DNA of 54,613 nucleotides, the filler included, from Jimgerdemannia flammicorona (Eukaryota), in assembly GCA_003990765.1 (NCBI GenBank). It is 3 parts of 3 records of this genome, joined end to end, with 100 filler letters (N's around TTAATTAATTAA, not from the genome) between each part and the next. Parts side by side here need not be neighbours in the genome. Positions count along the whole stretch, not along the records: positions 18,240 to 36,377 come from RBNJ01002291.1; 2 more parts are not named here. One strand, written 5' to 3'. This document shows, piece by piece, positions 18,140 to 46,700 of this stretch. Positions within the stretch are counted from its first letter, which is position 1; each line of letters starts with the position of its first letter. Under the pieces are notes generated by a model. It was not told where the DNA came from. It searched no databases and saw only the letters and a program-made list of their open reading frames with translations. Both the position numbers and the translations under genes were made by a program.

Positions 18140-18239
18140 NNNNNNNNNNNNNNNNNNNNNNNNNNNNNNNNNNNNNNNNNNNNTTAATTAATTAANNNNN
18201 NNNNNNNNNNNNNNNNNNNNNNNNNNNNNNNNNNNNNNN
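18140..18239. other. Assembly gap with artificial six-frame-stop linker
   Basis: N44-TTAATTAATTAA-N44, identical to the second gap. Confidence 0.97.
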
Positions 18240-21200
18240 TTTTTTTTTTTTTTTTTTTTTTTATAGTCTCTTGGACTCCTTTATTACAGCTATCTAATAC
18301 AATTACAGAGAACTACAAATCACTACTAATCCTATAACACATACTGAAGTAGAGTCCTTCAGCCAACTCCTTCCTTCCATCGCACCCCACTATCATCTAA
18401 CACCAGAAACCCTTGACTCTGCAGTACAATATCCTGTATCTTCTTTAAGGCCCCTGGCTGGAGATGCCTCCCCTGAAACCACTACCCCTGAACTACCTCC
18501 TGTATCAGCCACTTCCACTGCTCCACCATCTCTCCAATCCCCATCCATGGGTCCCATTCGAAAACCCACCGCCAGTGCACTGCCATCAAGACCCAGACCC
18601 CCAAAATTCGACCTAAGCCTCCCCAGATATCACCAATTTCCCCTACCAGCCAGTGCTTGACCACCAGGCTGGTCAGATCTTCTGCCCTATGCCTCACTGG
18701 GCCCCAGTAACCTTCCAGACTCTGCCAAAACCCTTCCATGCCTGGACAGGCCCCCAGAACATATTCTGGTGTCTGAATAACCCCTCCATACACCTCATTA
18801 CACCACTCACAGTCTCGACAGCCATCCACCTCCATCCAGCCTGTCCGATAGCTCAACATCACATTACGTCTCAAGAACTGCCACCAAACCACCCAGTATT
18901 TGGGGGGCACCATCTTGTGTACTGAGGTTCCCCACTTCCAAATTCGAGTCCACTCCCAGTCCTCACCAAAACCTGCTCTCTGCCAACCAGGGGGCCATCT
19001 CTCCAGAGGCTCAGATCTGATCCACTCCATTGCCTCAATCAGGGAGTACTCCTTCAGACTGTGACCACCCATATGCAGGTCACTCAGTCACCACCATTGC
19101 TGCTCAGGGTCCACCCCCACCTCTATCTCTGGGCCTGCCAACCCCATGGCTAGCCAGGCCTCCACAATACCCCACCAGAACCCCTTGAAATGCAGCTTGC
19201 CTACACTCCCAACCTGAAGCAAGCCCCGCATATCCTTCCAGACTTCACCACAAGGGCAGAACCGAACCTCCCAATTGTCCATGGCCAGCCTGCCCCAACC
19301 TTCCTCACCAAGTTCCATCAGTCGGTGCCCCCACCAACCCTGAAGTACCTTCAGTCGGTGCCTGAAATCCACTAGCCCCAGGCCACCATCAGAAGTCCTT
19401 GTCACCAAAGTCTCCCATCCAATCTGCAGATGCCTCCCACGCCATATCCACCCTTCTACAATCTTCTTCAACCACTGCACCACCCACCCTGGAAAATCCA
19501 GATGATAACCCAGATACCACAGTTTGGGCAGCCAATACACATTCAAAACCACTATCCTGCCAACCAAAGAGAAGCTCCTTCCTGACCAATCCGTCAATGC
19601 ACCTTCCAGTCTCTAAATCAATACAACCACCACTCCTTCGGCAGGACTGTCCCATACACCAAGAACCAGATACCCATATACCGAACAGCACTCCCTGTAG
19701 GTACCAATTGTCCGAATTGTCTATGTCCCCCCAGGCCAATACCAAGTTCCATTGTCTCATACTTGCCCCAGTTCAACTTTGCCCCTGCCAGCTGCTCATA
19801 CTGACCCACCCTTTCTTGTAGGGTGACAACATCCTCCCGACTGCCCAACCCTACCACCATATTATCTGCAAAGGCACTCAACTTCCAGACCACCTCTCCC
19901 ATCCGCAGTCCAGAGAGTTGCCCCTTCAACCACACCAATAAAGGTTCTAGAGAGAGTACATAAAGAAGGGGGGAGAGAGGATCCCCCTGTAGTACCCCTT
20001 GCCCCAAGGCAAACTCTTGTCCACACCATCCATTCATCATCACCGCAGCTCGGCATCCCTGTACCAAGCCCATCTATTGCCCTGCCTCTGCTACACCAAA
20101 CCCTGCCCTCCTCAGAACAGCCTCCAGGTAGCTCCACCGCACTCTGTCATAGGCCTTCTCTTGATCCAGAAAAACCATCTGGCCATCTACCTGCTAGCTC
20201 CTACAGCTCTCTAAAACATTCTGCACCCAAGCAGTACTATCTCTGATCTGCCTCCCCTTGACAAAGCCTCGCTGCTCTTCTCCAACTAGCACACCAACAT
20301 ATTGCTGCATTCTTCCTGCCAGAATCTTCGATACCAACTTTCTATCCACATTCAGCAGCATGATAGGTCACCAGTTGCGCCAAACTCGTCGATCTCCCTT
20401 TTCCTTGTATAGAAGAGAGATTAGACCCAAGGAACCATTGCCAATCCAGCTATCCTCCTTCAAAACAGCATTGGCCATCTCCACCAACCAGATACCAAAC
20501 TCAGCCTTGAACTCCTTCCAGAATTCCCAGGGCAACCCATCCTCTCCAGGAGATGAACCAGTCTGCGTCTTCCTCAGTACTTCCAATACTTCATCAAGAG
20601 ACACCTCCCCCATGACCGCCTCCCCCATCTCAGGTATCGCTGTCACTGGCCAATTGGTCACCATATTGTCATTATCCTCCCCAAGCCCAGCCTCCTCATC
20701 ATGCTCCCCACCATCCTGCCAAAAGGTTTGCCATTGACTGGATACCTCCCCAAGCATGTCAGCAATTCCAGAGACCTCTACTCCATCCTCATGCAATACT
20801 GTAGCCCAACTGTGTCACACTTGCCTGGCCTTCAAAACACCAGTCAGATATCTCGTCGGCCTCTCGCCTTCTTCCAACCATCTAGCTCGCAGCCTTGCTA
20901 GCAGGCCATCTACTACCCTGGTCTCTGACACCCTTAGGTCTGCCTGCAGCTCTGCCACCTCTAATGCCAACTGGTGGTGCACCTCTCCAGACAAGTCCCC
21001 CTTTTCCAAAAGCTTCAATCGCCATCTCAGCCTCTGTTCAACTCTCCTTTCCTTGTCCTTCTGTTCCTTCCCAGCTACTTCTCCAACATCCCACCAGTAA
21101 GCACCAGCCAAATGTTTGAGTTTACCCCACCATTCTGCTATCAACTGCCCTTCACTCTGCCATCGCAAAACTTCCTGTCACACAACTGTCACAAAATTGT

Positions 21201-24040
21201 CCCTCTCCTTCTTCCTCTTGAGTAAGGCCACATTGAGGTGCTAGTGCCCTCCACCACCACTCGCTGCTTGAAATCTACCACAAACCTCCACTCCCCAGTG
21301 ATCAGACCAAGGGCACCAGTGCACCTCCGCAGTGTCCAGTACATTGCCCCAGCACTCCGCCACCAGTACCCAATCTATTCGCATCCCAACCAATATTGTT
21401 CCAACTGGATGCCACTGGGTGAAAGGTCCCAACTTATCCCCCTGTCATTGGCGAACTCCATCTACCAAACCCATGTCGTGCTCCACCTGAAGCCACTGAG
21501 AAAGTCCAGAGGATACCACAACCCCTGCTCCACCATCAGATCTATCTAGTGCACGATCACGTACTATGTTAAAGTCCTCCCCCAGAATGTCTAAAGCAAC
21601 TACCTCCTGACCATCCCATGCCAGCCATCTCTCAACCCATTGCTTTTGCTCTCTGCCAACCGCAGGGAGGTAAACTGAGCCAATTGTCAAACCATCACCA
21701 GCCCCACCTTTTAGTCTTCCCCAAATCAGTCTGTCACCATAGGCCTCTACCTCCACTAGCTCACCTTTGCCCACACCAACCAAGACACCCACCTGCTTAT
21801 TCCAACCTGCTCCACCATACCATTCTTTACTCCACATCTCAAAGTCTGACTTGCCATAAGCCTGGATATCCTGCAGAAACACAACATCATATCTCCTGAC
21901 TTTAAGCCATCTGAAAAGCCGCTGCCTTTTAACACTATCCCACAATCCATTGACATTGATCGACAAAATATGTAGGTTGTTAATCATCATTAAGGAAATT
22001 GTTTAAAGCTCAGCAGGGACTGCCACCACTTTCTCAGCCCTTCCTCTAACAATCTCTCACTGGTCCTCACAAATTGCCCTCCAGATTCGATCACCATTAG
22101 CACTGCTGCAGAAAAGGTCCACTCTCTCTGTCACCACCTTCTTGATATCGGCCATCCTGCACTCGTCAACATCATATCCTTCATCGTCCAGCAGGGTGGC
22201 TACCATTGCCATCACCAGCTTAGGCCCCTGCATCACTACATTGAGGAATCCTTCCCATGCCTCCTGAGATCCATGAAACACATCCACTTTCTTGATGTCT
22301 TCCTCCGCCAGCTCCTCAAGAACTGCCTGATACCAGCTCTCTGCCGTCATCACCAGGGGCCTGGGAGTTAATGGCCTAGGGGTCCTGCTCAGCTCCTGCA
22401 GTTGCTCTCTGTCTGCCGACACATCCGAAGCCACATCCACTAGCTCATCCTCCTCGGCAACTTTCTCCAAGCAAATAACCTCACCAGCTTCTGGGCACTC
22501 CCAATGGACATTCGCTGCCCCCGCCATATGAATATCCTCCACCTGAGTCTCCAGCACTACTTCATCATCAACCTCAAAGCCTCCTTCACCAACCTCCTCC
22601 TTATCTGCCCACTTTCCCCTCACCGGCGCATGTGCCGAGTTCTCAACACCACCCAGCTGGGAGAAGGACACCTCCGCCACCTCCACGCCTTCCATCTGAT
22701 TCTTGGCTACCTCTACCTTTGCCTCTTCTTCCATAGCTGCCCCTCGAAGGGCCACCTGCAGACGTTCCCAGTTCCCTTTCCTCTACTGCTTCCTCTTGCC
22801 ATCAGCCTCGATCCAGACCCAATCCTTGGCATACTCCTCTTACTTCCTCTTTTGCAGCTCCTTGGCAGCCTCTCTCTCCTCTAGAGCAATTGCCAACTCT
22901 TCCTCCTCCTGTTCGGCTCCCTTTCTCCTCCAGACCTTGCACTCCTGCCCCCCAATTCTAATCCCCTCAGGCCAATTGCGGCCCAGCCCAGTAGCCTCCT
23001 TGCCTTCCAGTCACAGCATCACCTCACAGTTGCCATTCCTCAGTTTGGTGCCCTCCCAGAACATGAACCCGAAGTCCACCATCTCACCATATCCACCTAG
23101 TGCCTCCACTACCATCTCCTTGGTCTCCTGTCTGCCCAGGGTTGGCAAACCTTCCACCACCAGCCGAACAGCACATGGATCCCACCTCAGACACCTCGCC
23201 ATCCCAATCCGGATACCCTTGACCATCATCCCTTTCTCCAGCGTCTTCACCATCGCATCCTCCTCCACAAATACAATCTCCACAGCCTCTGCCAACAGGA
23301 TGAACTTCAGGGATTCTGCCCCAGCTACTTCCTCTCCCACCAACCTCAGAACCTCCCTCGCTGACATTGCCAATCCCAGGAAGTTCGCCGAGACTGCCCA
23401 CATCGACACTGATTTGTGGAAGAAGGGCCTCACCACCAACTCGCCTGTCCCTGCTGCCAGAGTCACCTTCCCTTTGGCCCCTGAAATACCTGTAGTTGTC
23501 CCACCCAGCCCAGCTGCGCCACCAGCAGTCCTCTCCCCAGCCACCTGCCCAGCCACAAAAGAACCAGTCTCCGGCATCCCACCACCAGACCCCTGTCCCC
23601 TGCCGGCCACCTGACCCACCACCTGACTCGTCACCTGACCCCTCCCCCTGTCAACACTATGCCCCCCCTGTCCAACCCCCATAGGCCTAACAGCAGCCCT
23701 CCTATTCCCAACTACCGTATACCAGGCCTCGGTCCCACCAGCCCTCCCCTATCCACCAGCCCTCCCTGCAGCCACACCAGCCCCAGCAGCCACCGCAAAG
23801 CTCTTGGGAATACCCAGACCAGACCTCCTCCTCTCTAGATGCTCAGAGCTAGAGGAATCTTGACTAGCCATGTTACCAAAACTTGTCCAATTTTCTTGAA
23901 ACTTGTTATGCCTTGTATGTAGACTCCTGCCGCACGATGTACACCAGTATGCTCGAAATAAAAACTGGAAAACGTATTGTCTTTCACTAAAAGATGTCTG
24001 TGTGGCTTAGCTCTCTCCGAATGGTTTGAGCAAAAGAAGT
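18240..24040 (-). mobile_element. LINE-A: full-length degenerate L1/Tx1-like non-LTR retrotransposon
   Basis: Poly(A) tail (T-run 18240-18262). ORF2 from 21990: APE (SINVNGL, WSDH), RT (SPGEDGLPWEFW, QEKAYDRV, QGDPLSPLLY, FADN) and C-terminal CxxC. ORF1 from 23871 to ~22057. 5' UTR is homologous to LINE-B. Confidence 0.93.
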
Positions 24041-27000
24041 CCCCCAATACCACCATACCCTGTCATAGGCCTTCTCTTGATTCAAAAAGACCATCCTCCC
24101 ATTGATCTGCCTACTCCTACAGCCTTCCAAAACATTTTGCACCCAGGCAGTACTGTCCCTAATCTGCTGGCCCTTCACAAAGCCCCTCTGCTCCTCCCCT
24201 ACCAGTCTTCCAATCCACTGCTGCAATCTCCCCACTAAGATTTTTGAGACTAGCTTCCTGTCTACATTTAGCAGCATGACCGGCTGCCAGTTGCGCCACT
24301 CCCTCCTGTCACCTTTCTCCTTATACAGCAAAGACACCAGACCTAAACTTCTATTCCCAATCCACCATCCTTCTTCCAGTACAAAATTAACCATTTCAAC
24401 AAGCCAAGCTCCAAATTCCACCTGAAACTCCTTCCAAAATTCCCAAGAGAGACCATCCTCTCCTGGTGAAGAACTACTCGGCGCCTTCTGCAGAGCCTCC
24501 AACACCTCCTCCAAAGACACTCTACCAAATACTGAAGCTCCAATCTCCAGTAGTGACACCACTGGCCAGTTATGTACTAGAGGTGCCTCTGTAACATCCC
24601 CTACCCCAATACCCCCACCCATATCATCATCACTCCAAAGAGTCTGCCATTGTCCTGAGATCACCTCCAACATATCCGCTACACTGGTAACCTCAACACC
24701 ATCTTCTCGCAAAACTGAAGACCAGCTTTGTCGAACATTTCTTGCCTTCAAGACACCAGATAAGTACTTAGTTGGTCTTTCACCCTCTTCCAGTTGTCTA
24801 GCCCTTAGGCAGGCCAGGAGCCCATCCACAACTCTATTCTCAGTCTCTCTCAAGGTTGCCTGTAGGTCGACTACCTCTCTAGCGAGTTGACCCTTCCTCT
24901 CTTCTGCTAGTAAAACATCCTCCAATAGCTTCAGCTGCCACCGCAAACCCCTTTCAACTCTCCTTTCCTTATCCTTTTGCTTCTTTCCTGCCACTTCCCC
25001 AGTGTCTCTCCAATATGCACTAGCAAGGTGTTTGAATCTACCCCACCAATCTGCAATAGATAGACCACCTGCCACCCATCACTCTACTTCCTGTCAGGCC
25101 ACATATATGAATTGCTCTCATTCTGCTGGACACCAGAGCAGAGCCACATTGAGACACCAGTGCCCGCCTCCCCCATTAATAGCCTGGAATCTCCCACTCA
25201 CCTCCACTCCCCAATGGTCTGACCATAGGCACCACCATACTCCGACTATATCAAAAACATTACCCCAATGTTCAGCTACCAATACCCAGTCAATCTGCAT
25301 ACCAACCATCCCATTGTCTATAGAATGCCACCTAGTAAAGGGGCCTAACCCATCTCCTGCCCTCAATCATACCCCATCTACCAATCCCATGCCCTTCTCT
25401 ACCTGAAGCCACTGAGACAGCCCTGGAGAGACCGCTACCCCAGCCCCACCATCAGACCGATCCAGTGCACAGTCCCTAACCATGTTAAAGTCACCCTCCA
25501 AAATGTCCCACCCAATCCTCCCAAGTCAACCACTCCTCTACCCATTGCTTACGCTCTCTGCCAACTGCTGGCAGATATACAGAGCCCACCAAAAGTCCAT
25601 CTCCTTTCCCTCTCTTCAGCCTTCCCCACACCAGTTGATCACTGAAACATTCTATATCAACTAACTTCCCCTTCCCAACTCTAACCAGAATACCAACTTG
25701 CTTACTCCAACCCGTGTTCCCAAACCATTCCTGACTCCACAACTCATAGTCCTCCTCCCCATAGGCCCAAATATCTTGAAGAAATACCACATCATACCTC
25801 CGGACCTTCAACCATCGAAAGAGATGCCACTGCTTCACACTATCTCGCAAACCATTGATATTGATAGACATAATACGTAGGTCATACTTTATCATGAAAA
25901 ATATGGAGTTTAAATATCAGCTGCCACTACCACCACCTTCTCAGCTCAGCCCTTAATGATGTCTTGACACTCCTCACAGACTGCTCACCAAATTCTTTTG
26001 CCATTGACACTGCCACAGAAGAGGTCCACTTGCTCGTATGCCACCTTATAGATATCTGCCATTCGGTCATCATCCACCTTGTACCCTTTATCCTCCAGCA
26101 GGGCTGCAACCATTGCAGTTACCAGCTTCAGTCCCTGCAATGCCACCTTGAGAAATCCTTCCCACGCCTCTGGAGAAGCCTGAAACACATCCACTTCCTT
26201 AATGTCATCCTCTGCCAGTTCCTCCAGAACCACCTGGAACCAACCATCTGCCACTATTGCCATCAGCCCTGGAGTCACAGGCCTGGAAGTCCGGCAAAGC
26301 TCCTGAAGCAGCTCTCTGTCCACAGAAACATCTGAAATGACATCCACCAGCTCATCCTCTTCAGAGACCTTATCCAACCTCACCACCTCCCCTGCTTCTG
26401 GACATTCCCAGTGTACATTCGCTGACCTAGCCATCACTGTGTCTTCCATTGGAGTTTCGGGAACCACCTCTACATTTTCTTCAAAGCCTTCTCCTTGCTC
26501 TTCTTACCATCTGCCCACTTCCCTGTCACAGATGCATGTGCAGATTCCTCCACTCCCCCCAACTGTGAGAAGGACACCTCCGCCACCTCCACCCCTTCCA
26601 TTCGATTCCTGTCAGATACTACCCTTTCAACCTCCTCCTCCTCAGATACTTGCAGCACTGCCTGCAGCCACTCCTAGTTTGCCCTATGCCAATGCTTCCT
26701 CTTGCCCTCTGTTTCAATCCAGATCCAATCCTTAGCAAAGTCCTCCCATTTCCTTTTCCACAAAGCCTTTGCCTCATCATACTCCTTGAGGGCTATCAGC
26801 AGCTCCTCCTCTTCCTGCTCAGAGCCTTTCCTCCTCCAGACCCGGCAATCCTGCTCCCCAACATAAATGACCTCTGGCCAGTCTCGCCCCAGGCCTGTTG
26901 CCTCCTTTCTCTCCAGCTGCACCATTGCCTCACAGTTACCATTCCTCAACTTTGTGCCCTCCCAAAACATAAATCCGAAATCCACTATCTCGCCAAAGCC

Positions 27001-27945
27001 TTCCAGAGCCTTGGCGATCACCATCTTAGTCTCCTGCCTGCTCAGCATCAGCAGTCCTTCTACCACCAACCTCACTGCATGTGGGTCCCATCTCAAGCAC
27101 CTCGCCATCCCCACCTTAACATTCTTAACCATCAATCCCTTCTTCAAGGCCTTCACTATAGCCTCCTCCTCAACGAATCTGACCTCCACTGCCTCTGCCG
27201 AGGGGATAAACCTCAGTGACTCAGCCCCCACAACCTCCTCACCCACCAGTCATAGAACTTCCTTGGCTGATAGACCAAGGCCCAAGAAGTTGGCAGAGAC
27301 TGCCCACGATGACACTGACTTATGGAAAAATGGTTGTACCACCAGCTTCCTAGTTTCTGCTGCCAGGGTTGCCTTGTTCTTGCTACTAGATATGCCAGCT
27401 ACTATCTCGCTAGAAGCTACTGCACCACCAGCAGTCCCACCTCCAGCCACCAGCCCAGCCCCAGGAAAGCCAGTCCCAGCCATTACACCCCTAGACCCCT
27501 GACCCCTGCTGGGCCCCTGGCCAGTCAGCTGACCAGTCACCTGATGTCCACCCCTGTCAACACTATGCCCCTGCTGCCCCCCAACTGTAGGCCTAGCGGC
27601 TGCCTGCTTACTCCCCACCACCATGTGCCAACCACCCAATCCTGCCACTGATCCATGACCCCCTGTTTGCCCTCCAGCCCCACCTTGACCAGCTGCCACC
27701 GCAAAACTCTTGGGGAGGCCCAGGCCAGGCCTCCTCCTCTCTAGGCGCTCTGAGCTTGATGAGTCTTGGGTCACCATACCACGGAAACTTGACAGATTTT
27801 GATGAAACTTGCTGTGAATTGTTGCCAGACTTCTGCCGCACCTTGCACACCAGTATGAACGAAGTGAAAACTTGAAAACATGTTGCTTTTCGCAAAAGGT
27901 TGCCTGTGTGGCTTAGCTTGCTCTGAATGGTTTTGTAAAGCAGCA
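24041..27945 (-). mobile_element. LINE-B: same family, interrupted in RT by LINE-A
   Basis: ORF1 from 27777, ORF2 from 25895 (SININGL, WSDH, SPGEDGL, QEKAYDRVWW), ending at the LINE-A 5' end. Confidence 0.92.
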
Positions 27946-27964
27946 GTTTTAGTTCAGTTCTTGA

Positions 27965-28392
27965 TATAAGAATCAAGTCCCCCCCCCACATACACACATT
28001 CCCCTGAGTCTTAGTAATGACATCTAAGTGACTCTAGTGTTTCTGACTAAACTCCAGAAGCCTAGCTAACTTCTGCCAGAACTGAGACTGATATATAAAT
28101 CTCCAAAGACTTAAGTAAACCCATTGAACCTGAATTCCAAGGTGAATTCAGTCTGTGCACAGCAAAGAACAAGACCCTTGAAATAGGGCACAAGAGAAAG
28201 ACCTTTGAAACAGAAGGCAAATCAGAGAAAGACCTTTGAAAGATAAGGCACTGCCACTATAACTACTTATAAGCAAGCACTTCCTCAAACTGAAGGCTTC
28301 TTGGTACACATTGTGTACTAAGTCCCTAAGTAATAGTCCACTTCCCTAATTATCCAAAGGATATGAGAGAGGTAGAAGTGAGAGTTATTACA
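27965..28392 (+). mobile_element. 5' LTR of Ty3/gypsy element 2, with PBS at ~28396
   Basis: tataag (eroded TGTAAG)...TTACA, TATATAAA at ~28092, followed by act-TGGTAGCAGCGG. Confidence 0.65.
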
Positions 28393-30339
28393 ACTTGGTA
28401 GCAGCGGTTTACCAGCCAAGAAGGCACCAAAGAACACACTCCTGAAGTTGGAACAAGACCAACCTTAGACAGGAGTAATCCCCAGAACCGACTGTGGATC
28501 CTCAAACCAGAGCCAGAGAAGCCCTTGCCATTAGGACCAGGTGGTACCAGGAAACCACAGACACAGAGACCCATCAGCTTGTAATTGACCAGGCTTACAA
28601 GGATCTATACTAGGCCTTTAGGACATACCACCCAGGACTTAGGAATATTGCTAGCTGCCGTAGGTTCTACAAACTCCTCCGAGGACACATTGAAACCACT
28701 AGGACCCCCAAATCTAGCTGTAGCCATCCAGGATTTTTTAGATTATATTACACCCCCTGCTGTAAAAGAAGCAGCTACTGAGTGGATTGCCTATGACAGA
28801 TACCATCATACTCCTACTAAGACCTCCCTCTACTATAGGCTAGTTGTATACTATGCCTCTGCCATAACTAGGTATGAGAATGAGCAAGCAGGCCACCCAT
28901 CCCCTACTGCTGAACAAGGAGTAGGCCCATCTACTCAGCCAGAGACTGATATTCTCTTTGAAGGACCTAGTAAGTACGAGGATGCACTATCTCATCAGAA
29001 AAGGGAGTCAGACGAAGACTCCACAGGTTACCAGTCTGACGATAGCCAATGAGGAATAGCAGGCCTAGAAATTTACCAAGAGACTACAGGTCAAGAAGAT
29101 CAGACCCCAGAACCAATCCAGCCACCTATACAGAGGTTTGGTTTACCCTCTCTCACAGGACTCTTTGACTTAATATCTGGGAACCAAGTAACCCCAAGTC
29201 ATACAGCACTATAACCCCACCAAGCAGAACAATCTTCAGGAGAATCTACCCCAACAGGCCCACCACCACTAGTCAAAACAATGGTAGATACCAACATTAC
29301 AGCACTGACCACCCAGCTAGCAGCACTAGCAGGAATAGTAGGACAAATTGCTGAATAGAACAAACCAACCAAGACCTTGTGAATTCCAACATTCAGTGGA
29401 AAAAACAGTGACATCGAAAACTTCATCAATGCAGTTAACATAGGTTACTGAGCAAACCAATGGAATGACAACTGAGTACCTATAGGAATACTCACCAACA
29501 ACCAGAACAGCACCCTTCAACAGCTGTTTGCCACATCAGCAGCACAAGTAGAAACAGTAGCCATATTCTTCACTAGAACAGCAGCTGAATTCTGGCAAAT
29601 CTTGGAACAACACCCAGTAACCTGGGAAGCCCGCCCTCAAGTCAATGGACAAGTACCTGGCAACAATAGACTAGGTTGGGATGACTACGAAGCAGACCCA
29701 GGACTCAAGGCCTTGCTACTGACCAAATTCCAAAATGCAGCCTACATATAAGAAACTTGGAACAAACTGTCCCAGATGAAGTTCCACAAGAATGGCGAAG
29801 AAGATCTAGAGACCTTTGCCACCAGAATGGATGCCTATCTCAAAACTGTTGGACTTACCTATCAGGAGAACAATTTGGCCATCAATGGTACCAGAGCCAA
29901 CCATCTCTTTGCAGCCCTACCAGACTGACTCACCCAGAAGATCAAGGAACAAGGTCTTCCCCAAGGATGTCCCCACTACTCATGGTGCTTTGCCCAAGTA
30001 CAAAGAAGAGCCCACGAAATCCTTGCTGCACAAGCCCTACAAAATCAAGAACACAAGAAGGATAACCAAGATAGGAGAAATCCTACCAGGAGAAATGATC
30101 AAAGGAATGACCAAAAATATGATCAATGGAATGATCAAAGGAACCAGCGAAATCCCAGAGGACCTGGACCTCTCACTAAGGATGAAAAGAAGCAGCTCCA
30201 CGAAAAGGAATTGTACTTCATCTGTAAGAAGGCAGGACACATCTCAGTCAGATGCCCTAAGAAGAGAAACAGATCAGGCAAACCCAGTAACCAGAACATT
30301 ACTGTTATTGGAGAAGGTCCAGAAAAGAAAAACCCTGAG

Positions 30340-30770
30340 AATGTCATCAAAGTACAGAAGATATGGTACAAGGCTACTATCCCCACTAAGGCCCACCCAA
30401 CCGATGCTGGATATGATCTCTACAGCAGCCAAGACCTCACCATCTCACCAAGCACCAATGCTACAGTGTGAACAGGAATTGCAATGCAAGCTCCCAGAGG
30501 TACATACATCCACCTTACTGAGCGAAGCAGCCTAGCCAAAGAGTTCAACATTGGGCTAGGTGGAGGAGTAGTTGACCAAGGATTTACTGGTGAAATCTGT
30601 GTCATCTTGCGAAATTTTGGAGACACCTCATTTGAAGTCAAAACAGGCCAAAGGATTGCCCAAGCAATCATTGAAGAAATCCATCAAGATCTCACCATTG
30701 AAGAAGTCCCCAAACTCTCTCAGACAGACCGTGGCAAGAAAGGGTTTGGATCTACCAACAAACCTCCCAG
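30340..30770 (+). pseudogene. Retrotransposon dUTPase in the gag frame, upstream of protease
   Basis: All five trimeric dUTPase motifs are recognisable. One TGA (likely from CGA). Confidence 0.92.
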
Positions 30771-32591
30771 TCAAAAAGGTCACTACCACGAAGGAAGATG
30801 ATGAAAACTGGTACAAGAGAATTGCAGATGGTTATGCACCATGTGGATGATGCCCTCATTCTATTTGAATGTACTGCATGGAACATGTTAGTGAATGCCA
30901 TGCATGTCTCTCCAAAGTTTTCAAAATTCAATCCGAGAAACGCCAAGCTCAACAGACTGAGGAACCCAAACAAGACAACCCTCCTTGTGAAGGATGGGGA
31001 GAAACTGACTTTGAGGAGACTGACAGCAATTGGGACAACAATGAGGATGAAGAGCTCAATACCATCAAGAAGGAGGACAGTTACATCAAGTTCACAGGCC
31101 AAGTCTACAGACAGAATGTCAATATCTTGCTTGATAGTGGTGCTACTGGAAACTACATCAGTACCAAGACTGCCAAGAGGATTGGAGCCCAAAGCAGACC
31201 CACTACTGAGAAAAGAAGTGTTACCTTTGATGATGGAAAGACTGTATCATTGACCAAGATCTGTGAAGACCTTTTGCTCAAGATTAGCAAATATCAAGAG
31301 AAGTTGGACTTCAGCATTGTAGACCTTCCAGGACAAGACATTATCCTAGGAAAAGCCTGGTTGACCCAGCACAACCCAGACATCAACTAGAGAACCAATG
31401 AGGTTAATCTGACCCATGAAGGCAGAAAAATCACCCTGACACCCCAGGAAGGTACCAACCACCAAGAAATCGAAATCATCTCTGCCATTCAAATGAAGAG
31501 ACTCTCTCGAAAAAAGGGAAATACCTACTTCATCTGTACAGTACAAGAAGTCACTGAAGCTACAAGTAGCCCAATTCCAACAGAAGCTCAAGAACTGTTT
31601 GAAGAATTCCAAGATGTATTCCAAGATCCTCAAGAACTTCCACCCAAGTACCAAATCCAACATGGAATTGATCTTATTCCAGGATCTGAACCCCTATATA
31701 AGAGTATCTACCAACTGGCCCAACCTGAGCTCAAGACTCTCAAGGATGAATTGACCAAACTACTGGCCCAAGGATACATTGAACCCAGCCACTCTCCATT
31801 TGGAGCCCCCATTCTATTTGTCAAGAAGAAGGATGGCTCTCTGCAAATGTGTATTGATTACAGAGCCCTCAACAAGATCACTATCAAGAACCAGTATGCC
31901 TTGCCCAGGATTGATGAGTTGCTACACCAAATCTTCAAGGCCAAGACCTTTTCTCTACTGGATTTGTGAAATGGCTACCACCAGATTCTCATTGATGAGA
32001 AGGACATTGAGAAGATAGCTTTCCGAACACGGTTTGGACACTACCAGTTCTGAGTCATGCCTTTTGGATTGACCAATGCACCAGCAATATTCTAGTATCT
32101 GATGAATGATATCTTTAGACCACTCCTCAATATCTGTGTCCTTGTATATATTGATGATATATTAATCTATAGTGAGACAGTAGAGCTACACTACACCCAC
32201 CTTAGACAAGTACTGATCCTTCTGCAAGAACACCAGCTCTATGCCAAGATGAGCAAGTGTAAGTTCAATCAAGACTAGATCGAGTACTTAGGACACATCA
32301 TCTCTGCTGAAGGTATCAATGTGGACCCCTGAAAGGTATCAGCCCTTAAGAATATCCCTATCTCTACTACCCTCAAGCTACTCCAGTACTTTCTGGGTAT
32401 TGCCAGTTATTACTGAAGGTTTATCCAAGGATATTCTGCTATTGCAGCTCCATTAACCAGTCTGGCCCGCAAAGGAGTGAATATCAAAGCTGAATAGACC
32501 CCTGAATGCACCCTGGCTATAGACCATCTCAAGAGACTCCTTACTGAGATCCCAGTGCTAATTGCACCTGACCCTACCAGACCATTCACTT

Positions 32592-33414
32592 GAGGAGGAA
32601 GAAGGCCCAACGGGAGCCAAGGGAGCGAACCCAGAGCCAGTGTCAAAGCGAACGGAAGACATGTGGAAAGGTATGTATAAGGGGGACGAACAAAGAATGT
32701 AACTGAAATTGCATCAGGCGTTTATTGCCACGTAAAAATGCGGTCCTTATATACAAAATACGACATCCCAAAAGGGAGGACGTGCCACAAGTCGGGGCGA
32801 ACCGAATTAGGAACCACATGACCGCCGGAGATAAGCGGAGATAAGAGGGGAGCCAATCCCAGTTGCAGGATGAAAATCACAAACAAACACAAACAAAACA
32901 AATCCAAATCGAGATTAAAAAACATCCTTGCCCCCTCCGGGGTCTCGCGCTCGCTCCGGGGTCTCGGCCTTACTCCGCTCCCCTCCGCTGCCTTCGGTCC
33001 CTCGCTTCGCTCGAGCTCGCTGTGGCTCGCTCCGTTTCGGCCTCACCCCTTGCTCACGCTCACCCCTCCGGGGTCTGCGGATGTTTTTTAATCTTGATTT
33101 GGATTTGTTTTGTTTATGTTTGTTTGTGATTTTTATCCTGCAACTGGGATTGGCTCCCCTCTTATCTCCGCTTATCTCTGGTGGTCATGTGGTTCCTAAT
33201 TCGGTTCGCCCCGACTTGTGGCACGTCCTCCCTTTTGGGACGTCATATTTTGTATATAAGGACCGCGTTTTTACGTGGCAATAAACGCCTGATGCAATTT
33301 CAGTTATGTTCTTTGTTCGTCCCCCTTATACATGCCTTTCCACATTTCTTCCGTTCGCTTTGACACTGGCTCTGGGTTCGCTCTCTTGGCTCCCGCTGGG
33401 CCTTCTTCCTCCTC
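32592..33414. repeat. 336-bp inverted repeat (32592-32927 / 33079-33414) with 151-bp GC-rich spacer
   Basis: Arms align without gaps, 14 mismatches by manual comparison. Confidence 0.97.
33253..33259 (+). promoter_or_regulatory. Candidate TATA box for PLE ORF1 (mirrored at 32747-32753)
   Basis: TATATAA ~75 nt upstream of the ATG at 33332. CCAAT (minus strand) and tandem CTTATC (GATA) sites lie further upstream in the arm. Confidence 0.45.
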
Positions 33415-34564
33415 TGCTGTACCGCCTGCCCTCGGGGCCTCCGTCCTTGTCAACAAGCTCATGGATGAGGTTCTTCCTCCTCCTCCTCCCCCTGCCTTCA
33501 CCCCCGCCACTGTCTCGTTCGAGACCTATATCTTGTCCGCCATCCTTTCCCTCCCCCTGGACCTTCATCCTTCTGGTCGTCCGCTCCTCTCCCAATTTCA
33601 GTCGGTTCTTGCCCTCTCTGCCAAGGAGGCTCGCCTCCGCCGTGACGTCGACGTCGTCGCTCCACCCGCCATTCGTTATTCCATTCTCCCCGAGGCCCGC
33701 TGCCAAGCTCTCTCTGAAGAGGTTCGTGCCGCCACTGCCGCCGCCAAGCTTGCTGCCGCTGATGCCGCCGCTACTTCCGCTGCCACCGCCTCTACCTCCT
33801 TCCAACGTGCCTGTGCCGCTTTCATGGCCTTCGCCTCCTCTTGCCTCTCGGATGCTGCCCCTTTCTGTTGCTTTGCCATCCATGAAGTTCCTTCTGTCGC
33901 CGCCGACATCGATGCCGTACGTCGTTTCCTCCTCGCCGGCACTTCCTTCGTTGCTCGTCTCCACGAACAAGAGTCGTCTCGCACCGCCGCTTCTGCTCGC
34001 GCTACCGCCACTGCTCCCCTTCCCGCCTCCCCTGAGGTTTCGGTCTCCGAGGCCATTCGCGCCGAGGCTCGTGCTGCTGCTCATGCTGAGGTTCGTTCCT
34101 TCACCACTGCCGCTGCCAAGGCCCCCTCCAAGACCCCCGCCAAGACCCCCGCCAAGCCCAACCAGGCTTCGTCGGCCTCTTCTCGGTCCCCCTCCCCAGC
34201 CAAGGCCTCCTCCTCCTCTGTTCCCCCTGCCCCCAAGCATGGCCGCCAACTTGGTTCTCACCCTGTCGGGGCCTGGCCTTGTGCCGTCTGCTCTGGTCAC
34301 CTCCACCATGCCTACTGGCACCCGGCCAAGTCCGTCTGCCCCCATGGTGGTGTTCCTTGCGCTGCTGCCCATTCGGCTGCTCGCTCGCCTTCCGTCTCCT
34401 CCGCCGGTTCCTCCTCCGCCTCCTCGACCCGTGTCCCTGAATGCAAGGGCTGCATGAAGGCCTGTGGCCGCAAGGTCTGGCACTCTGATGGGGTGTGCTC
34501 CCATTCGTCGGGTTCGCCACCTTCAAAAAAAGTCAGAGGGAAGGGGAAGACCTCCCGCTCTTAA
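33332..34564 (+). CDS. PLE ORF1, 410 aa: Ala-rich helical region, Cys/His-rich C-terminus, basic NLS-like tail
   Basis: Uninterrupted ORF with consistent NNC/NNT codon use. CAVCSGHLHHAYWH..CPH...C, CKGCMKACG...H...C and PPSKKVRGKGK. Confidence 0.8.
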   Translation: MPFHISSVRFDTGSGFALLAPAGPSSSSAVPPALGASVLVNKLMDEVLPPPPPPAFTPATVSFETYILSAILSLPLDLHPSGRPLLSQFQSVLALSAKEARLRRDVDVVAPPAIRYSILPEARCQALSEEVRAATAAAKLAAADAAATSAATASTSFQRACAAFMAFASSCLSDAAPFCCFAIHEVPSVAADIDAVRRFLLAGTSFVARLHEQESSRTAASARATATAPLPASPEVSVSEAIRAEARAAAHAEVRSFTTAAAKAPSKTPAKTPAKPNQASSASSRSPSPAKASSSSVPPAPKHGRQLGSHPVGAWPCAVCSGHLHHAYWHPAKSVCPHGGVPCAAAHSAARSPSVSSAGSSSASSTRVPECKGCMKACGRKVWHSDGVCSHSSGSPPSKKVRGKGKTSRS

Positions 34565-36377
34565 ACTTCCCCCTGGCCTGGTTCTCCCCCGGTGTCCCTG
34601 TCCCTTCTCGGATCCCATCGTCGCTTCTGGTGTGCCCTGAGTGGTTCCTCATGTTGTCCCCCCTTCACCTTTCCCAGTTGCTTGTCTCGAACTTTCGGGT
34701 TTATTCTTCTCTTAGAATACTTTTGTCTCCTCCTTTCTCTTCGGCTGACTGCCCTCTTTCTCCTCTTCAAGTCTTTGCCTTATCTTTGGGTCCTCGCTTT
34801 GTTTTTCCTGCGACTCCCTCACAATTCTCCTTCACCGATCCGGCTTGTCTCACACGTTTTCGTCATGCTCTTGACCTTGCCATCTTTTTCAAAGATCGTG
34901 GTGAGATGCCCTCTTGCTATTTTGTTCCTAGTGATTGGGTCCCCCCTCCCAATGTCTCTTCACACTGCGTATTCCTCGACATGGCTTGCTCATTGTCCGT
35001 TCCTGGATGCGCTCACTCTTGCTTGGTTTCGGACCGTGCCGTGCGTACCACGCTTAAATCGGTCAAGCAATTGCCTTTGCATTTGCTCACAGTCACTGAT
35101 AAGAATCAGGGTTTTGCACTTATTCCTAAGTCGCTCTACCTTGATGGCCTTTCTGCCCTCCTTCGAGCTGTGGCTTACGAGCCTAGCGCTCTTGGATTGG
35201 ATGAGGTTCTCACTCTTCTTCGGGTTTCTCTGGCTCATGCCAGATCGCTTTCAGATTCCCCATTCGCGAATCCCATTTTTAACTTCTTCCAGGACTCTTT
35301 GTCCTCTTCAGACATTTGTCTTCCGGTTTTTTATGCCCTTCCTAAAGTTCACAAGCCTATTTTGGCTTGGCGTCCTATTACGGCTGCTTATAATTCCCCC
35401 ACTACTGAGATTTCCAAGTGGTTATCCCGCTTCTTTCTCTCTTGGATGGCTCTTTTACAACACCGTCTTGGGCCTGAGTACACTATTCTTCGTGATACTC
35501 AGGAGCTCGCACTTCTCTGCTCCACCATTGTGCCTGTTCACCACTTCTCCCATTTGGCCTCTGGTGATTTCTCCTCCTTCTACACTGCTATTCGTTTTGA
35601 TGAGATTGATGATTGCCTTCATTTCTTGGGTTCCATTGTGTTTTCTTTGGACTCTCCGGTTTCGTTGGCTTCTATCATTGAGCTTACACTCCTCGTCTGC
35701 GGCTCTAATTATTTTGAGTCGGCCCTTGGCTCTTTTCACCAGACTTCTGGTATTGCCGTGGGTACGAATTGTGCCCCCACCCTTGCTAATCTTATTGGCC
35801 TGGCCCATGAACTTCGTGCGATACGTGATCCTCTTTCACCTCTTTCCATCGCGTTCCGGGCTGGGGATATCGTCTTTCGCCGATACATCGATGACTTTAT
35901 TGTCCTTGCTGTTGCTGGTATCGATATCCCTAGTGTGTTTCAGGGCGTCTACCCTCCCCATCATTCCATTACTTGGGTTTGTGGTACGACAGATATTCCC
36001 TTTTTGGACCTTTCAATTTCTCTTTCTCCCTTTCGAACAGTTGTCTATTCTCGCTTTCCGCGTTCTCAACAGTTCCCTGACTTCTTGTCCAACCATCCTC
36101 GTCACACTCTTCTTGAATGTGTTCGTGGTGAGGCTCGTCGTCTTGCACTTTGCTGCTCCCGTCGTTCTGATTGGGTGTCTGCTGTTCGGGTTCTTGGCAA
36201 CTTCGTCATCCATCATTGTGCCTACCCAATTTCTATCATTCGTGACCTGCTTGCTTCAGTTGAATGGTCTGTTGTTCGTTCTTCCCTCCTCTCTCCTCTT
36301 TACCCCCCCTCCCTTCCCTCCCTCCCCCCTTACCCTCTCCGTACCCCCTCTTCTTTCCCACCCCCAATTCTTGTTGT
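34495..36377 (+). CDS. Penelope-like reverse transcriptase, 3' partial (first ATG 34651; possibly reached by -1 frameshift)
   Basis: PLE motifs TDKNQG, FYALPKVHK...RPI, GDFSSFYTAI, QTSGIAVGTNCAPTLANL, RYIDD, PFLDLSI and thumb SNHPRH...RRL..CS...YP. No stop codon before the gap. Confidence 0.93.
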
Positions 36378-36477
36378 NNNNNNNNNNNNNNNNNNNNNNN
36401 NNNNNNNNNNNNNNNNNNNNNTTAATTAATTAANNNNNNNNNNNNNNNNNNNNNNNNNNNNNNNNNNNNNNNNNNNN
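36378..36477. other. Assembly gap with artificial six-frame-stop linker
   Basis: N44-TTAATTAATTAA-N44. Confidence 0.97.
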
Positions 36478-40292: not shown

Positions 40293-42683
40293 TATAAGTA
40301 TACAACCTCCAAGCCACCGAAATTACACATCACCCTCTGAATAAGCCACTGAAATCACATGCAACCTCCGAACAAATCTGGAAATCACCTGCAAGATCAC
40401 AAAGCTGAGTCAAACTGAAGTCGCAGCATACAAAGCTGGGTCAATACGAAGTCACAGAACACAAGACTTACACAAACAGAATCTTACCAATTAGGACCAA
40501 ATGTAGTGCTCCAAACAAGTCAATCTGGATGGGATTCAGATGGATTCGAATCCCATCTGGATGGATTCGAATCAACCATTGTTTTGATTTCTAAATTGGA
40601 CATTTAAATGTTTATATCAATAACTCGATGAATAATCATCATCCAAATTTGATGATCTGGGTGTCATTTGAAAGCCCTTAATAAGGCCTTTCTAATGATA
40701 TCAAGAAAATTAAAATCGGATTACGCGTTGCCGAGATATTAAGGAAAATGTTCTATTTGACGAAATTTCCAAAATCGGCAAATCAAAGAATTTTCAAAAT
40801 CGGTGATTCTGATGGTTTCCTTCATAACTCAGCAATGTATGATCAGATTTCAATGTTCTTGGTATCATTAGATAGGCCTTATTAAGGGCGTTCAATTGAC
40901 ACCAAGAACATCAAATTGGGATAATTATTCATTAGGTTATTGATGTAAACATTTAATTATCTAATTTGGAAATCAAACAATGGTTGATTCGAATCCATCC
41001 AGATGGGATTCAAGTTGATCTGGATGGGATTCAATCTGAATCAATCTGAATCCAATCTAGATTAAATTGACTTATTCGGAGTACTAACCAAATATATATA
41101 TACCAAGCACCAAGATATGCTGAAATAGAGAACCAAAACAAACAATAACTACAACTTCCGCACATACACAAACATGACTACCGAGATCTATAACCACATC
41201 CATGCTGACATTTAGAATGCTATTGTCAATTGAGCCACCCTCTCTGCCCCTCATAAATATCCATAGCTTAGTATCTCTCTACTTTGTGGAAGCCTGATGG
41301 AACACCCTGAACATGCTTAGTGAGGCCCACTGAATCAGACAAATCTCAAGCTACTATCAGATCAGCTGCCTTCTGGAAGATATGGTCAAACACCATCATG
41401 ATACAGACATGACCCAAATGTCCCAATACCAGAAACTTATTGCCTGCAAACATTGAGAACTCTTCTATAAGTACAGCACCTTTATCCCTCGCCTCTGAGT
41501 TACTACTGCTGAAATGGTTATTACTCTGTCCAATGGCCAAATTGATGACATGATACAAGAACTCAACCACAAGTATCTTGAATATGTCCAGACTATAGAC
41601 AGAACCTTCCTACACCCCAATGACCATATTCTACAAATGCCTCAAGTTAGATATGCTAAGAAGGATGTCTATGATATAATCCAGTTCAATAAAGACAAAG
41701 TAGACAACAATGATCCCTCTGACACTGATATGACCTCCAGCCAAGAATCTCTACCAACTCTGATCACACTGCCAACCTTACTGATAAACTTGCAATAGTT
41801 CATAACCACCTATGAGACCTATTGGGACAATGACCACTGGTATGAATACTAACCTGTGTTCACCCCTGATTACTTCAACTATAATGAAGAGATCAGAGAA
41901 CACAACCTGTACCTTCAGACAACCCTTAAGATCAAACCAACCACCCTGCTACCCAAGTATGAGTGACATGAACCACAGCCACCAGCTTACTACAACCCCA
42001 TGACTCATAGTGCTGTAACCTATAGAAGGTATGCAGATAGTGAATCCAATGAAAGTGAAGATGATGTATCCCTCCTTTGCCCACCAATGCCTTACCCAGC
42101 ATATGAGACAGATGATGCTATCTTGTGAGACAGTGATAAAGTCCCAATATATAATTACATCAGTAAATAAGGAGAAGTAATCTGTGAACCACTCTTCCTA
42201 GATGACTACTTCATCAGAGATAATGCCATCTATAGTGATGTCATCAGAGACTACCCAGACAGCATATAAATCTATAGATAGCTTAGCAGTCATAGTATAG
42301 TTAGATTTGCCTTATACAACATGACTGTGAACTGACTCAGCAGTCAGACAATCTCTTGATATGTCAGATCACCTTGTACTATGTAACTACATTCTGACTC
42401 AGCAAGGCACTAAAGTGCTACATCTATATCTAGTATAGTCCAGATACATAGCTCCTCACTAGTATAAATACCCCCTCTCTCAGACCTCAGAATCTCAGAC
42501 ACAAATAGACTTGAACACTTGAACAATCCAAATACAACTTCTGAACACTTCCCTACAATATCCCTTCACACAACTACTCCTAGTATAGCAATATCATGAA
42601 TAGTGAATAAACCTATTTAATAATCCACAAACCACTCTTTAGTAAATCCACTCCCCATTAGGTCCCACTTCTAACCCCATCAC
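40293..42683 (+). mobile_element. Long 3' LTR-like unit (contains a hAT MITE and a decayed ORF); right end approximate
   Basis: Starts right after the PPT, homologous to 1146-1298. TATAAA at ~42463 and AATAAA at ~42605. Confidence 0.55.
40504..41086. mobile_element. Fold-back hAT-type MITE (583 bp)
   Basis: TIRs tagtgctccaaacaagtcaat / attgacttattcggagtacta. 8-bp TSD accaaatg (40496-40503) / accaaata (41087-41094). Internal ~200-bp inverted arms. Confidence 0.9.
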
Positions 42684-43039: not shown

Positions 43040-43791
43040 GGATCAGTCTTGCTACAGGTGTGGTGGGAGAGGAGGGTGACCATCTGGAGGGAGGCACTTC
43101 AAGGCTGGGGAGGCTGCCACATCTCCCTGGTGGACCAAGTAATGATCCTGAATGTATACTGGTTTCTTAAGCTATAGTATATTGTCTATCACTTGGATTT
43201 TCCAGCTAAGGTGGTGAAGAGACTGATGAAGCTGGCTAGGGATTAGATTTGGACTGGGAGGCAGTACCAGATCAGTTGAGATACCCTTTCAATGTTAGTA
43301 GTTCAAGGGGGGCTAGGACTGGTAGACTTTTCTAAGAGGCTGTATTGTCTGAGAGCTTAGTAGTTGAAGTGGGCTATGGAACTGAGAGAAGAGAGATGGG
43401 TGCTGATGATGCAGAAGGTGTGGGAGATGAGATTCTCTCCAAGATGGTTCTCAGGGAATTTGCTTTCCCTGATAGATCTGGGTGGGAGCCATTGGCTGTG
43501 GTATAAAGGCTTCTGGTGTGGGGTAGTAGATGGAGCATACCACATAGGCTTGTACTGGTGTAGCAATAAAGGAGAGAGGCTGTGGAGACCAGCTATGTGG
43601 AGATAAGACAGATGGCTCCGGGTGGGTACTCCTTTTATTAAATTTGATATTAGTGATGGAGTAGAGTGTCACAGAGGACTTGGTCAGGATCTTTGATCTA
43701 GTAGTTGGTAAGCAGTGAGGATTGTTGAGGAGTGGGATTGGGCAGGAGTCTGGGAATAGAGTGCTGAGGTGCAGAGGTAGCTTCCACCCAA
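43040..43791 (+). mobile_element. LINE-C (older copy), 3' ORF2 part, left of the LINE-D insertion
   Basis: GGLGLVDF and YKGFWCGVVDGAYHIG match LINE-A/D ORF2. The reading continues at 49672. Confidence 0.8.
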
Positions 43792-46700
43792 AACTAAGAA
43801 CGACATCTTTCTCTGATACTACTTGGGTTATACAACCTTTGAAAGGCACTCATGACATCGTTTTTGGAGCAAAGAGACTAACAATATGACAACTGATAGG
43901 CGAGCTGAGGTGTGTACTGGGCAGGGCGGCCCAAGTGCATTTGAATGGCAGCAAGTTAGGAGGGGCCCAGGCCTAGGGGGGAGCATGAGGGGGCTGCTGG
44001 CAGGTGGACGAAGAAGGGGTGGAGGTACTGGTGGAGGTCAGGGGTCTGGGAGGGCGAGCTTTGCTGAGACGGTGAAGGGGAGGCAGCAGGCATCGGGGCT
44101 GGAGGGCTGGCTGAGGAGGGGCAAGGAGAACAAGAAGGCAGTGGTGCAGGGGGGAGTGGCCCTTGGAAGGGGGGACAGTGAAGCTGGGGGAGTAGCAGCT
44201 GGAGGGAGTGTGACTGCTGATGGCAATGGGACTGCTAATCTGGAAAAAAATCCAGATGTGATGGCTGTTGGTGAGGTTGAGCAGCTGGGGCTTGGAAGAT
44301 AAGGAGATTTGGCGGATAGTGTGATGGGCCTGGCAGTGGCCCCATTACTCAAGAAATCGATCTCAGCATTCGTGGTTACACTGTGCTTCCAGGGCTTAGT
44401 GGTGACGGCGAAAATAGTACTGGGGCTTATCGCTAAGCAGGTGGCAGGAGCTGCTTCGGTGAAGTTTCTAAAGGGACTGGAGGGTGTGGAGGTAGGCTTT
44501 GAGGAGGCTGAACTGCTGAAGGAGGCACTGAAGGTTGGGTTGGTGGCTAGAGAGGTGTGTGTGCCAATGGCGAGGTGTTTGAAGTGGGATCTGTGAGTGG
44601 TCCAGCTGCTAGAGAAAGGAGTATCCACAGTGACAGCGATGGAGACAAGAAAGAGAGTGGGGAATGTTATGGTGGAGTATGGAGAGGTAGTGGATATTGG
44701 ATTCAGGATCTGGGAAGGGACCATGCTCAGGACTGGGGATGTGGATGTGAGGATTCAGCTGGCTGGAAAAAAGGCTACTGGGAAGGTGAGGGACTGGCCT
44801 TTGGTGATGGTTTGGGGAGTGATCCTGTACAAGGTGGCAAGGGTGAAAGGAAGTGAAGAAGAGGAAGAGGATTTATTGAAAGCACTGGAGGAACTGGATG
44901 GGGCTGTGGAGCAGCAAGCTAAGGCCTGGAAGACTTTTGAGGAGTCGACACACCTGGAGGTAGTGGATGGAAAGAGGATTCGAGTGGACAAGGTGCAGTG
45001 GGATAGGGCTCAGGGGTGGAAGTGACAGAAGGATCTGCTGGCTAAACTGGGGGGTGGACCACAGAAGGATGCAAGCAAGAAGATGGGTGCTGAAGGGGCC
45101 AGAGCAAACATCTGGGCTGGCAAGAGGAGTGGGAATGATGGGGTGGAGACAGGGAAGGCGAAAGAGGGGAAGTTTAGCGACCTATATGCTGATGGCACCT
45201 TGGAGGTTTGGGATGAAGTCTGGGAGAACTCCCCCACTCCTTCCCCTCTTATCAGGCGTGGCCCAGCTTCCAGGAACAAGAAAGGGGAGGACCTGACGAT
45301 GCTGGGGACCCAGCAGGTGAAATTCAGCATTCCAGAGGTAATGAATGGGGATCAAGTAGTGGTGGTCAGAGAGGAGGAACTGGTGGATGTCCCGGAGGTG
45401 TGGGATGAGGATGTGAGTGCCAGAGCTGACACCACAATGCTGGATGGAGGGAGGCCAGCAACCCCTGGTGGGAAGGAGGTGGGGAACCTACTTTGAATGT
45501 GCCAGATGATGAATAACCTGGTGGCAGAAGAGCTGGGGGAGGTGGACTTGTGTGGGATGGGTGATGAGCACTGGATGAAAATTTTGCAGGAGGAAGGAGT
45601 GGTGATGGCACTGAAGGTGGAAATTCTTACGGTGTATCTGGAGGAGGAAGGGTATGAGATGGACAAGGAGTGGGAGGCAGAGATGGCGGTTACTGCTGGG
45701 GAGAGGGCTGAGTACTGTTGGAACAAGCATCATGGGCTGCAGCTTTGGCAGGAGGCTTGCATCAAGTACAGAGAGGAGTTTGAGGAGAAGGCCGATGGGG
45801 AGATGAATGAGCTGTTGGCTGAACTGGAGGCTCAGGGGGCTGAAGAGGTGGAGGTGATGGCTGAACATGATCTGGACATGGCACAGGAGAAGATGAGCAT
45901 GGAGCAGTAGAGATCGATGGAGAACAAACTGTAGTTAACTATGAACAGTACAACCAACATTTTTTCTTTGAATGTGAATGGGCTAAGGGGCACAGTTAGA
46001 TGTAGGAACATTTTTACTTGGCTGAAGGGATTGGAGGCCAATCTCATCCTCTTGCAGGATGTCAGGTGTGAGGATGATTCTGATAGGATGGAATGGACAA
46101 GAGAATGGGGAGGCATGGCGATTTGGAACAGCAAGGTCAGGATTCTGGTTTGGAAAGGCAGAGGGGAGATAAGGGATGTGAGGAGCTGGGGGGAGTGACT
46201 GGTCTGGGGTGAGTGGATTCATGCAGGTTGGGAGCCAGTCACAGTTGGCTCCTGTTATTATCCTGCTGTGCGGGGGGAGTGTGTGGATTGGGTGAAAAGG
46301 CTCCAAGAGAGTGAGATCCTTGCTGAAGCTGGGGTGGATATGCTTGGAGGAGATTTCAATATGGTTCGGGATATATGGTTGGATAGAACTGATGGAGGAC
46401 AGGGTGCTGAGAGCAGGAGTGGGGGGCTGGTAATATGGGAGAAAGTCGAAAGGCTAGGAGTGCTGGTGGATGCTGGTAGGGAGTACTGGGGGGACAGGAG
46501 GGTATATACACATTGGGCTGGAGGCCTGGGGACAAGGATTGATTGGATTCTGATGGCCAACTGTTGGGACCGCGATGTTTGGAAGATGCTAGAGGTGGAA
46601 TGGTGTCCGTGGTCAGATCACTGGGGCCTTTTGGGACAGGGGCGTTTTGGGGGAAGTGGGGATGGGCCTGGACATTGGTGCCTAAATTCCTCCTTGATGG

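Follow-up and report, generated by a model that had tools for sequence, protein, structure and literature searches.

The inverted repeat near the right-hand end of the middle contig is best explained as the 5' end of an old chromosomal insertion, in which a divergent Penelope-like retroelement (PLE), probably of endonuclease-less (EN-less) type, entered a decayed gypsy pol sequence and displays the complex 5' architecture usual for PLEs; a probability of roughly 0.55 is placed on this reading. The main copy of the element runs rightwards from about 32928 through the spacer, one arm of the repeat, ORF1 and the reverse transcriptase (RT), and then off the contig, with a second, inverted copy of the arm lying between the spacer and the gypsy sequence on its left (Table 1). 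The window, i.e. the whole 54.6-kb stretch of DNA analysed, contains two identical linker blocks of 100 nt (N44, a 12-letter word with stops in all frames, N44) at 18140-18239 and 36378-36477, and therefore represents three joined contigs rather than one piece of a chromosome; features are not to be read across either linker. The PLE sits close to where the middle contig (18240-36377) ends on the right, and its RT ORF is truncated there, at 36377. A blastn search of the window with 32592-36377 found only this interval itself and the arm pair, and neither the arms nor the spacer nor the body recur elsewhere in it.

Table 1. Coordinates of the PLE, its gypsy flank and the adjoining linker, in positions of the window
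Feature	Position	Strand	Remarks
Decayed Ty3/gypsy-type pol (protease + RT)	29810..32590	+	cut just before RNase H domain; PLE target or flank
Inverted arm	32592..32927	-	antisense copy of 33079-33414; outer end 32592 = 33414 of main copy
Spacer	32928..33078	+	151 nt, strand-polar, C-rich, three direct copies of CTCCGGGG(TCT) word
Direct arm	33079..33414	+	TATATAA 33253-33259, AATAAA 33280-33285, first in-frame ORF1-frame ATG 33332 (motifs read from sequence)
ORF1	33332..34564	+	410 codons from ATG 33332; alternative ATG 33461 lies after arm
ORF2	34489..36377	+	PLE-type RT (DKN, LPKVHK, YIDD, thumb); open to contig end; -1 frame relative to ORF1
Assembly linker	36378..36477	.	joins two unrelated contigs; element 3' end missing

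A single inverted pair was detected within 31000-36000, namely 32592-32927 against 33079-33414, in which 336 nt are 96% complementary with 151 nt between them, and this pair is the strongest of the eight inverted pairs in the whole window. Base-by-base comparison of the arms gave 14 mismatches over the 336 positions, 13 of them transitions and one a transversion, with about six located at CpG (contexts read by eye). Beyond the outer ends of the arms complementarity fell to 11 of 39 positions, approximately the level of chance. The inverted repeat is genuine, has sharp limits and is not young. The composition of the inverted arm mirrors that of the right arm (A 40% and T 13% on the + strand), and the inverted arm has no counterpart of the 151 nt found in front of the direct arm. 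Neither junction shows visible microhomology, as judged from the base comparison and by eye. The TATATAA motif of the direct arm is a putative promoter box, and the arm would hold the first ~28 codons of ORF1 only if ATG 33332 is the start. The first-pass annotation had described 336-bp arms in inverted, divergent orientation around a 151-bp spacer, on which the repeat search and the base-by-base comparison agree; its head-to-head placement of the two arms is borne out by repeat geometry and arm polarity, and its observation that the outer arm breaks off directly in gypsy pol likewise holds, with RVT_1 matched in 31391-32590 and related gypsy copies reading on.

The gypsy sequence on the left matches the Pfam families RVP_2, gag-asp_proteas and Asp_protease_2 in 29810-31390 (gypsy pol, with X at stops) and RVT_1 in 31391-32590 (E 6.3e-35), where seven in-frame stops in 400 codons were read as X. 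At the protein level the closest match of a gypsy fragment is a JGI protein at 85% identity, followed by proteins of plants and Chara at no more than 54%. Related gypsy contigs from three public sequencing runs (X1, X2 and X3) extend beyond 32589/32590 into sequence absent from the window, which indicates that the gypsy break at 32590/32591 is real and that the arm starts at 32592. In these contigs the continuation presumably opens the RNase H domain; the 20 letters of it present as loose ends occur nowhere else in the window at up to three mismatches. When the gypsy copy at 31500-32590 was compared with related contigs from four runs, it carried A or T more often at positions where its relatives have G or C (counts for X1 being A>G 60 and T>C 95 against C>T 51 and G>A 30), an excess that points to C-to-T decay.

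With its DKN, LPKVHK and YIDD motifs the RT is PLE-type and the element a divergent PLE, in agreement with the identity initially assigned to it. In ORF2 the stretches TDKNQG, LPKVHKP and RYIDD align with eight relatives, and a total of 48 proteins were recovered as relatives at E <= 0.001, many of them containing PF26215 (HTH_animal) and PF28514 (DUF8422); taken alone, the Pfam RVT_1 match of ORF2 is weak, at 16.9 bits against a cut-off of 29.6. The nearest Atlas clusters consist mostly of rotifer proteins. The nearest relative, P0001, is 52% identical and is the only one above 32% identity among 5.8 billion proteins; it aligns up to the contig end and terminates 61 residues further on, 224 residues after YIDD, with no GIY-YIG before its end. 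Among the relatives the tail after YIDD is mostly about 200-250 residues long in DKN rows and about 310-377 in rows flagged for GIY-YIG, the flag being a regular expression of the analysts' own, and in Pfam GIY-YIG was found in two of the six relatives scanned. A quick maximum-likelihood tree of 49 rows pairs the RT of the element (win_RT) with P0001 at SH-aLRT 100 on a long stem branch, and places both outside a 17-row clade (SH-aLRT 99) that contains all 10 DKG rows and all 12 GIY-flagged rows; this tree is without named Athena or Coprina sequences and does not resolve the place of the pair among the other rows. Endonuclease-bearing PLEs (Penelope/Poseidon, Neptune, Nematis and Naiad/Chlamys) have a GIY-YIG endonuclease at the C- or the N-terminus. 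Pfam detected no GIY-YIG in ORF1 or in ORF2, the C-terminus of ORF2 being cut by the contig end. Judged from these relatives, with the C-terminus of this copy itself missing, the element is probably of the EN-less (DKN) type.

ORF1 has no family in Pfam and no usable Atlas match, a protein search within the 'near' length band gave no relatives at E <= 0.01, and no match better than E 0.6 was obtained by blastp with the 48 PLE proteins. The element's + strand is poor in A (12-13%), and three + frames and one - frame are open for 390-646 codons, i.e. over more than 1 kb, within 33285-36433. As this composition opens frames by itself, ORF length is no evidence of coding in 33285-36433, and the start of ORF1 (ATG 33332 or ATG 33461) is uncertain.

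Pseudo-LTRs (pLTRs) of PLEs are copies of one sequence in direct orientation at both ends of the ORF. In the 'typical Penelope structure' of a 2013 account of Adineta vaga, two pLTRs flank an ORF and a further, inverted pLTR lies next to them; the pLTR contains a TATA box together with the opening 12 codons of the ORF, and the inverted one falls 37 bp short of the direct ones (PMC3846280). The same head-to-head order, with a direct pLTR following a shorter inverted one, is given in PMC8557442. Among PLEs an inverted pLTR, or an inverted 5'-truncated copy, next to the 5' end is frequent without being obligatory (PMC3846280, PMC8557442). The present locus has the same features as the Pen2a_Av type of Penelope from A. 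vaga, with a head-to-head inverted repeat at the 5' end, an inverted copy that is shorter (by 151 nt here and by 37 bp there), a repeat that has a TATA-like box and takes in the first few codons of the ORF frame, and an element that breaks the assembly (PMC3846280, PMC8557442); the absence of homology at the target junction also matches the PLE picture. It differs from Penelope in that no hammerhead was found and in that the RT groups with EN-less-type relatives rather than with the GIY-YIG-bearing clade. The spacing also differs, as the arms lie 151 nt apart here, whereas the published example has an overlap or a small palindrome at the junction (PMC3846280, PMC8557442). The layout, which the first-pass annotation had presented as unusual, is therefore the published typical arrangement, in keeping with an ordinary old insertion and giving no sign of a hairpin-ended replicon. 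Because the RT groups with EN-less-type relatives, likeness to the layout of endonuclease-bearing elements was not expected a priori, and in the portion of PMC3846280 cited the EN-deficient PLEs of fungi and protists are said not to share the inverted-pLTR organisation.

According to Frangieh et al. 2024 (PMC11167929), the purified PLE protein PAc cuts and extends both target strands, and it begins reverse transcription at an internal site, close to the pLTR-ORF junction and not homologous to the target. For the present locus, priming from both ends of a broken target followed by joining of the short inverted cDNA is the most likely origin, with a chance somewhat better than even. Both free 3'-OH ends of the broken target would have primed reverse transcription of the element RNA, the right-hand target end giving rise to the long copy and the gypsy end at 32590/32591 to the short inverted copy. 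The latter would have begun at the usual RT start site of the family, just inside the ORF and equivalent to 33414, and the short cDNA, ending 151 nt before the RNA 5' end was reached, would then have been attached to the 5' end of the long cDNA through a template switch or through end joining. In the one copy on which this explanation rests, 32928-33414 would constitute a pLTR, a status that is predicted, and a third, direct copy is predicted to follow the RT ORF beyond the contig end. Canonical pLTRs usually carry a hammerhead ribozyme. None was found in 31500-36377 (Rfam at E <= 5, with two weak unrelated matches), which counts against the explanation, as do the requirement of an EN-less element for a pre-existing break at the target and the lack of visible microhomology at either junction. 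Naiads are described without a hammerhead in the passages cited from PMC8557442.

The composition of the spacer bears on how the two arms came to face each other. On the + strand it contains 3.3% A, 46% C, 25% G and 25% T, and the element body contains 12-13% A; a loop around a symmetry centre would show A ~ T and C ~ G. As the polarity of the spacer is that of the sense strand of the main copy, the spacer is read as the 5' continuation of the right-hand copy rather than as a symmetric loop. It would accordingly belong to that copy, with the inverted copy merely being without it. Folded alone, the spacer gave z = 0.03, with 102 of 200 shuffles folding equally well or better, and a stem that seemed to extend into it was due to the arm flanks and became insignificant once these were removed. 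TRF reported a 19-nt period at 32935-32977 within the spacer.

An origin by snap-back self-priming would have minus-strand cDNA reach the 5' end of the RNA (32928), fold back with a 151-nt loop and copy 336 nt along itself, after which the copied end was joined to the gypsy break. The polarity fits, with the order on the minus strand being body, spacer and sense copy, and each end of the spacer has, 4-5 nt inwards, an imperfect complementary word (8/11, CCCCTCCGGGG with itself). However, the bases at the switch point, 32928 and 33078, do not pair, and the spacer alone is no more structured than its shuffles. Self-priming, which the first-pass annotation had offered as one possible origin of the fold-back, stands as a published hypothesis and is for that reason not new: head-to-head PLE repeats led the 2013 authors to infer a 'propensity for self-priming', with the remark that an antisense template would be needed (PMC3846280). 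Further, a defined RT start site of the kind described for PAc (PMC11167929) accounts better for a copy that stops after exactly 336 nt, a little way into the ORF. Snap-back of a long cDNA is thus possible, though less likely than priming from both target ends, and is considered unlikely overall. Twin priming of L1, or hairpin-primed second-strand synthesis, can also produce an inverted 5'-side segment, from a second 3' end or from the cDNA's own 3' end. Twin priming of L1 inverts a different stretch of the RNA, is not known to duplicate the same segment and is carried out by a different RT family, whereas here the same 336 nt are duplicated.

A hairpin-capped linear replicon, of which the locus would be a captured molecule, had been put forward by analogy with the mitochondrial pFOXC retroplasmids of Fusarium oxysporum. 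These share with the locus an RT-encoding DNA with fold-back ('clothespin') geometry in the passages cited (PMC3035579), and it is the repeat geometry only that speaks for this origin. Unlike pFOXC, the copy here is chromosomal, embedded in gypsy DNA to which its arm is directly joined, and its RT is PLE-type; its arms are 4% diverged, its spacer is polar, is not a palindrome and folds no better than shuffles, and TRF found no terminal or telomere-like repeats in the window. An autonomous replicon of this kind is therefore regarded as extremely improbable and the proposal was not upheld. There is a slim chance that an EN-less PLE lineage entered an internal break rather than a telomere and that fold-back of its cDNA finished the 5' end, so that a hairpin-ended intermediate existed at least transiently. 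If this were true, and a regular step for the lineage, it would connect the head-to-head repeats seen in PLEs with a specific mechanism of self-priming.

The inverted duplication could also have arisen after insertion, independently of retrotransposition: DNA broken near the element's 5' end would have undergone fold-back inversion or template switching, and a second break would then have been joined to gypsy DNA. Fold-back repair usually leaves an inverted duplication around a short unique spacer, and the region is crowded with decayed transposons and contains further inverted pairs. Such a history would nonetheless require two separate events, the junction is without microhomology, and the rearrangement would have to hit the typical PLE insertion layout, as the cited passages give it, by chance (PMC3846280, PMC8557442). 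It is considered improbable.

Searches for further copies were conducted in public collections and sequencing runs. A degenerate 24-letter arm pattern had no match in metagenome_contigs, viral_contigs or genome_contigs, and a two-row alignment (A2) matched 78, 37 and 28 stretches in three collections, none of which was confirmed by tblastn. No RNA runs carrying the sequence were listed among public sequencing runs. The best run, X1 (a soil metagenome), contained 0.25 of the sampled words, and X2 to X4 contained 0.05-0.06. The sequences from X1-X4 are Logan contigs of about 160-630 nt, and as the family is held in these runs as contigs of a few hundred bases, the structure is not resolvable from them; no palindrome-spanning piece is present among the X1-X4 pieces listed. 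One X4 contig follows the left arm as far as 32943 and continues as adapter; having crossed the left junction by only 16 letters, fewer than the 31-letter rule requires, it was not counted as bridging. Summed contig depth in X1 was 29-67 over the arms, 44.5 in the spacer bin, mostly 11-47 over the body and 5.6 in the last bin (36227-36377), figures that cannot rank the parts and from whose differences nothing is drawn.

These searches bear on the further explanation of an assembly artefact, in which the assembler would have fused two different copies of the family, oppositely oriented, at a point within or next to the spacer. Such a join would fit the short contigs joined by linkers and the contig breaks within this same element, and none of the public contigs listed spans the whole palindrome; PLE structures are also reported, in the passages cited, to disturb shotgun assemblies (PMC8557442). 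However, the arms differ at 14 sites, so that the repeat is no read-level chimera, the left junction shares no word other than an 11-nt quasi-palindrome, which is not long enough to cause a join by overlap, and run X1 covers both arms and the spacer. A misjoin is accordingly given only a small probability, and the insertion of a PLE with its usual 5' architecture is retained as the preferred reading.

In its coding part the element resembles Athena of bdelloid rotifers and Coprina of fungi and others (Coprina-1_Alen, PMC13159263), sharing with them, as far as the cited passages go, the DKN motif, a short post-thumb tail (in P0001) and two ORFs of which the first is unrelated to known families. 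An EN-less Coprina element with flanking direct repeats and two ORFs is described in the same source (PMC13159263), and the predominance of rotifer proteins among the Atlas clusters nearest to the element agrees with this likeness. Athena and Coprina are located at telomeres, with reverse-complement telomeric repeats at the 3' end (PMC8557442, PMC13159263). The element differs in that it is not visibly telomeric and is embedded in gypsy pol, with no telomere-type arrays among the 34 TRF rows for the window, its 3' end being located beyond the contig. The comparison is made without named sequences of either group, for an element on a long branch with one relative only. What is new is a deep-branching PLE lineage, probably of EN-less type, with little significance beyond annotation, and this lineage shows a head-to-head inverted 5' repeat known mainly from endonuclease-bearing PLEs. 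If the layout were confirmed in non-telomeric EN-less copies, inverted repeats would look like a trait of the RT and priming of PLEs rather than of the GIY-YIG nuclease.

Several other features of the window were recorded. In the first contig, an open frame of 486 codons at 15578-17038 has about 50% GC in DNA of 21-35% GC and has no Pfam family. In the middle contig, 18240-28000 is a LINE-like region on the minus strand, with a GC skew of about -0.43 on + and a run of T23 at the contig start; it includes an RVT_1 match on the minus strand at 23987-25078 and a tandem duplication at 21005-27933 with a period of about 3906-3916 nt and 69-79% identity. In the third contig, which is rich in gypsy sequence, a second small palindrome at 40634-40929 has 114-nt arms, 83% complementary and 68 nt apart. 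At 43497-47493 some 3.5 kb are enclosed by two inverted pairs (149 and 108 nt, 71-72%), an Exo_endo_phos ORF lies at 46199-46870, the GC skew turns from +0.4 to -0.38 near 47000, and 47702-47878 resembles 19406-19582 at 74%; the interval 43497-47493 looks like two oppositely oriented copies of the skewed LINE-like family of the middle contig. Towards the end of the window, 260-nt inverted repeats (79%) surround 1327 nt of AT-rich DNA at 52600-54446, which may be a small terminal-inverted-repeat element.
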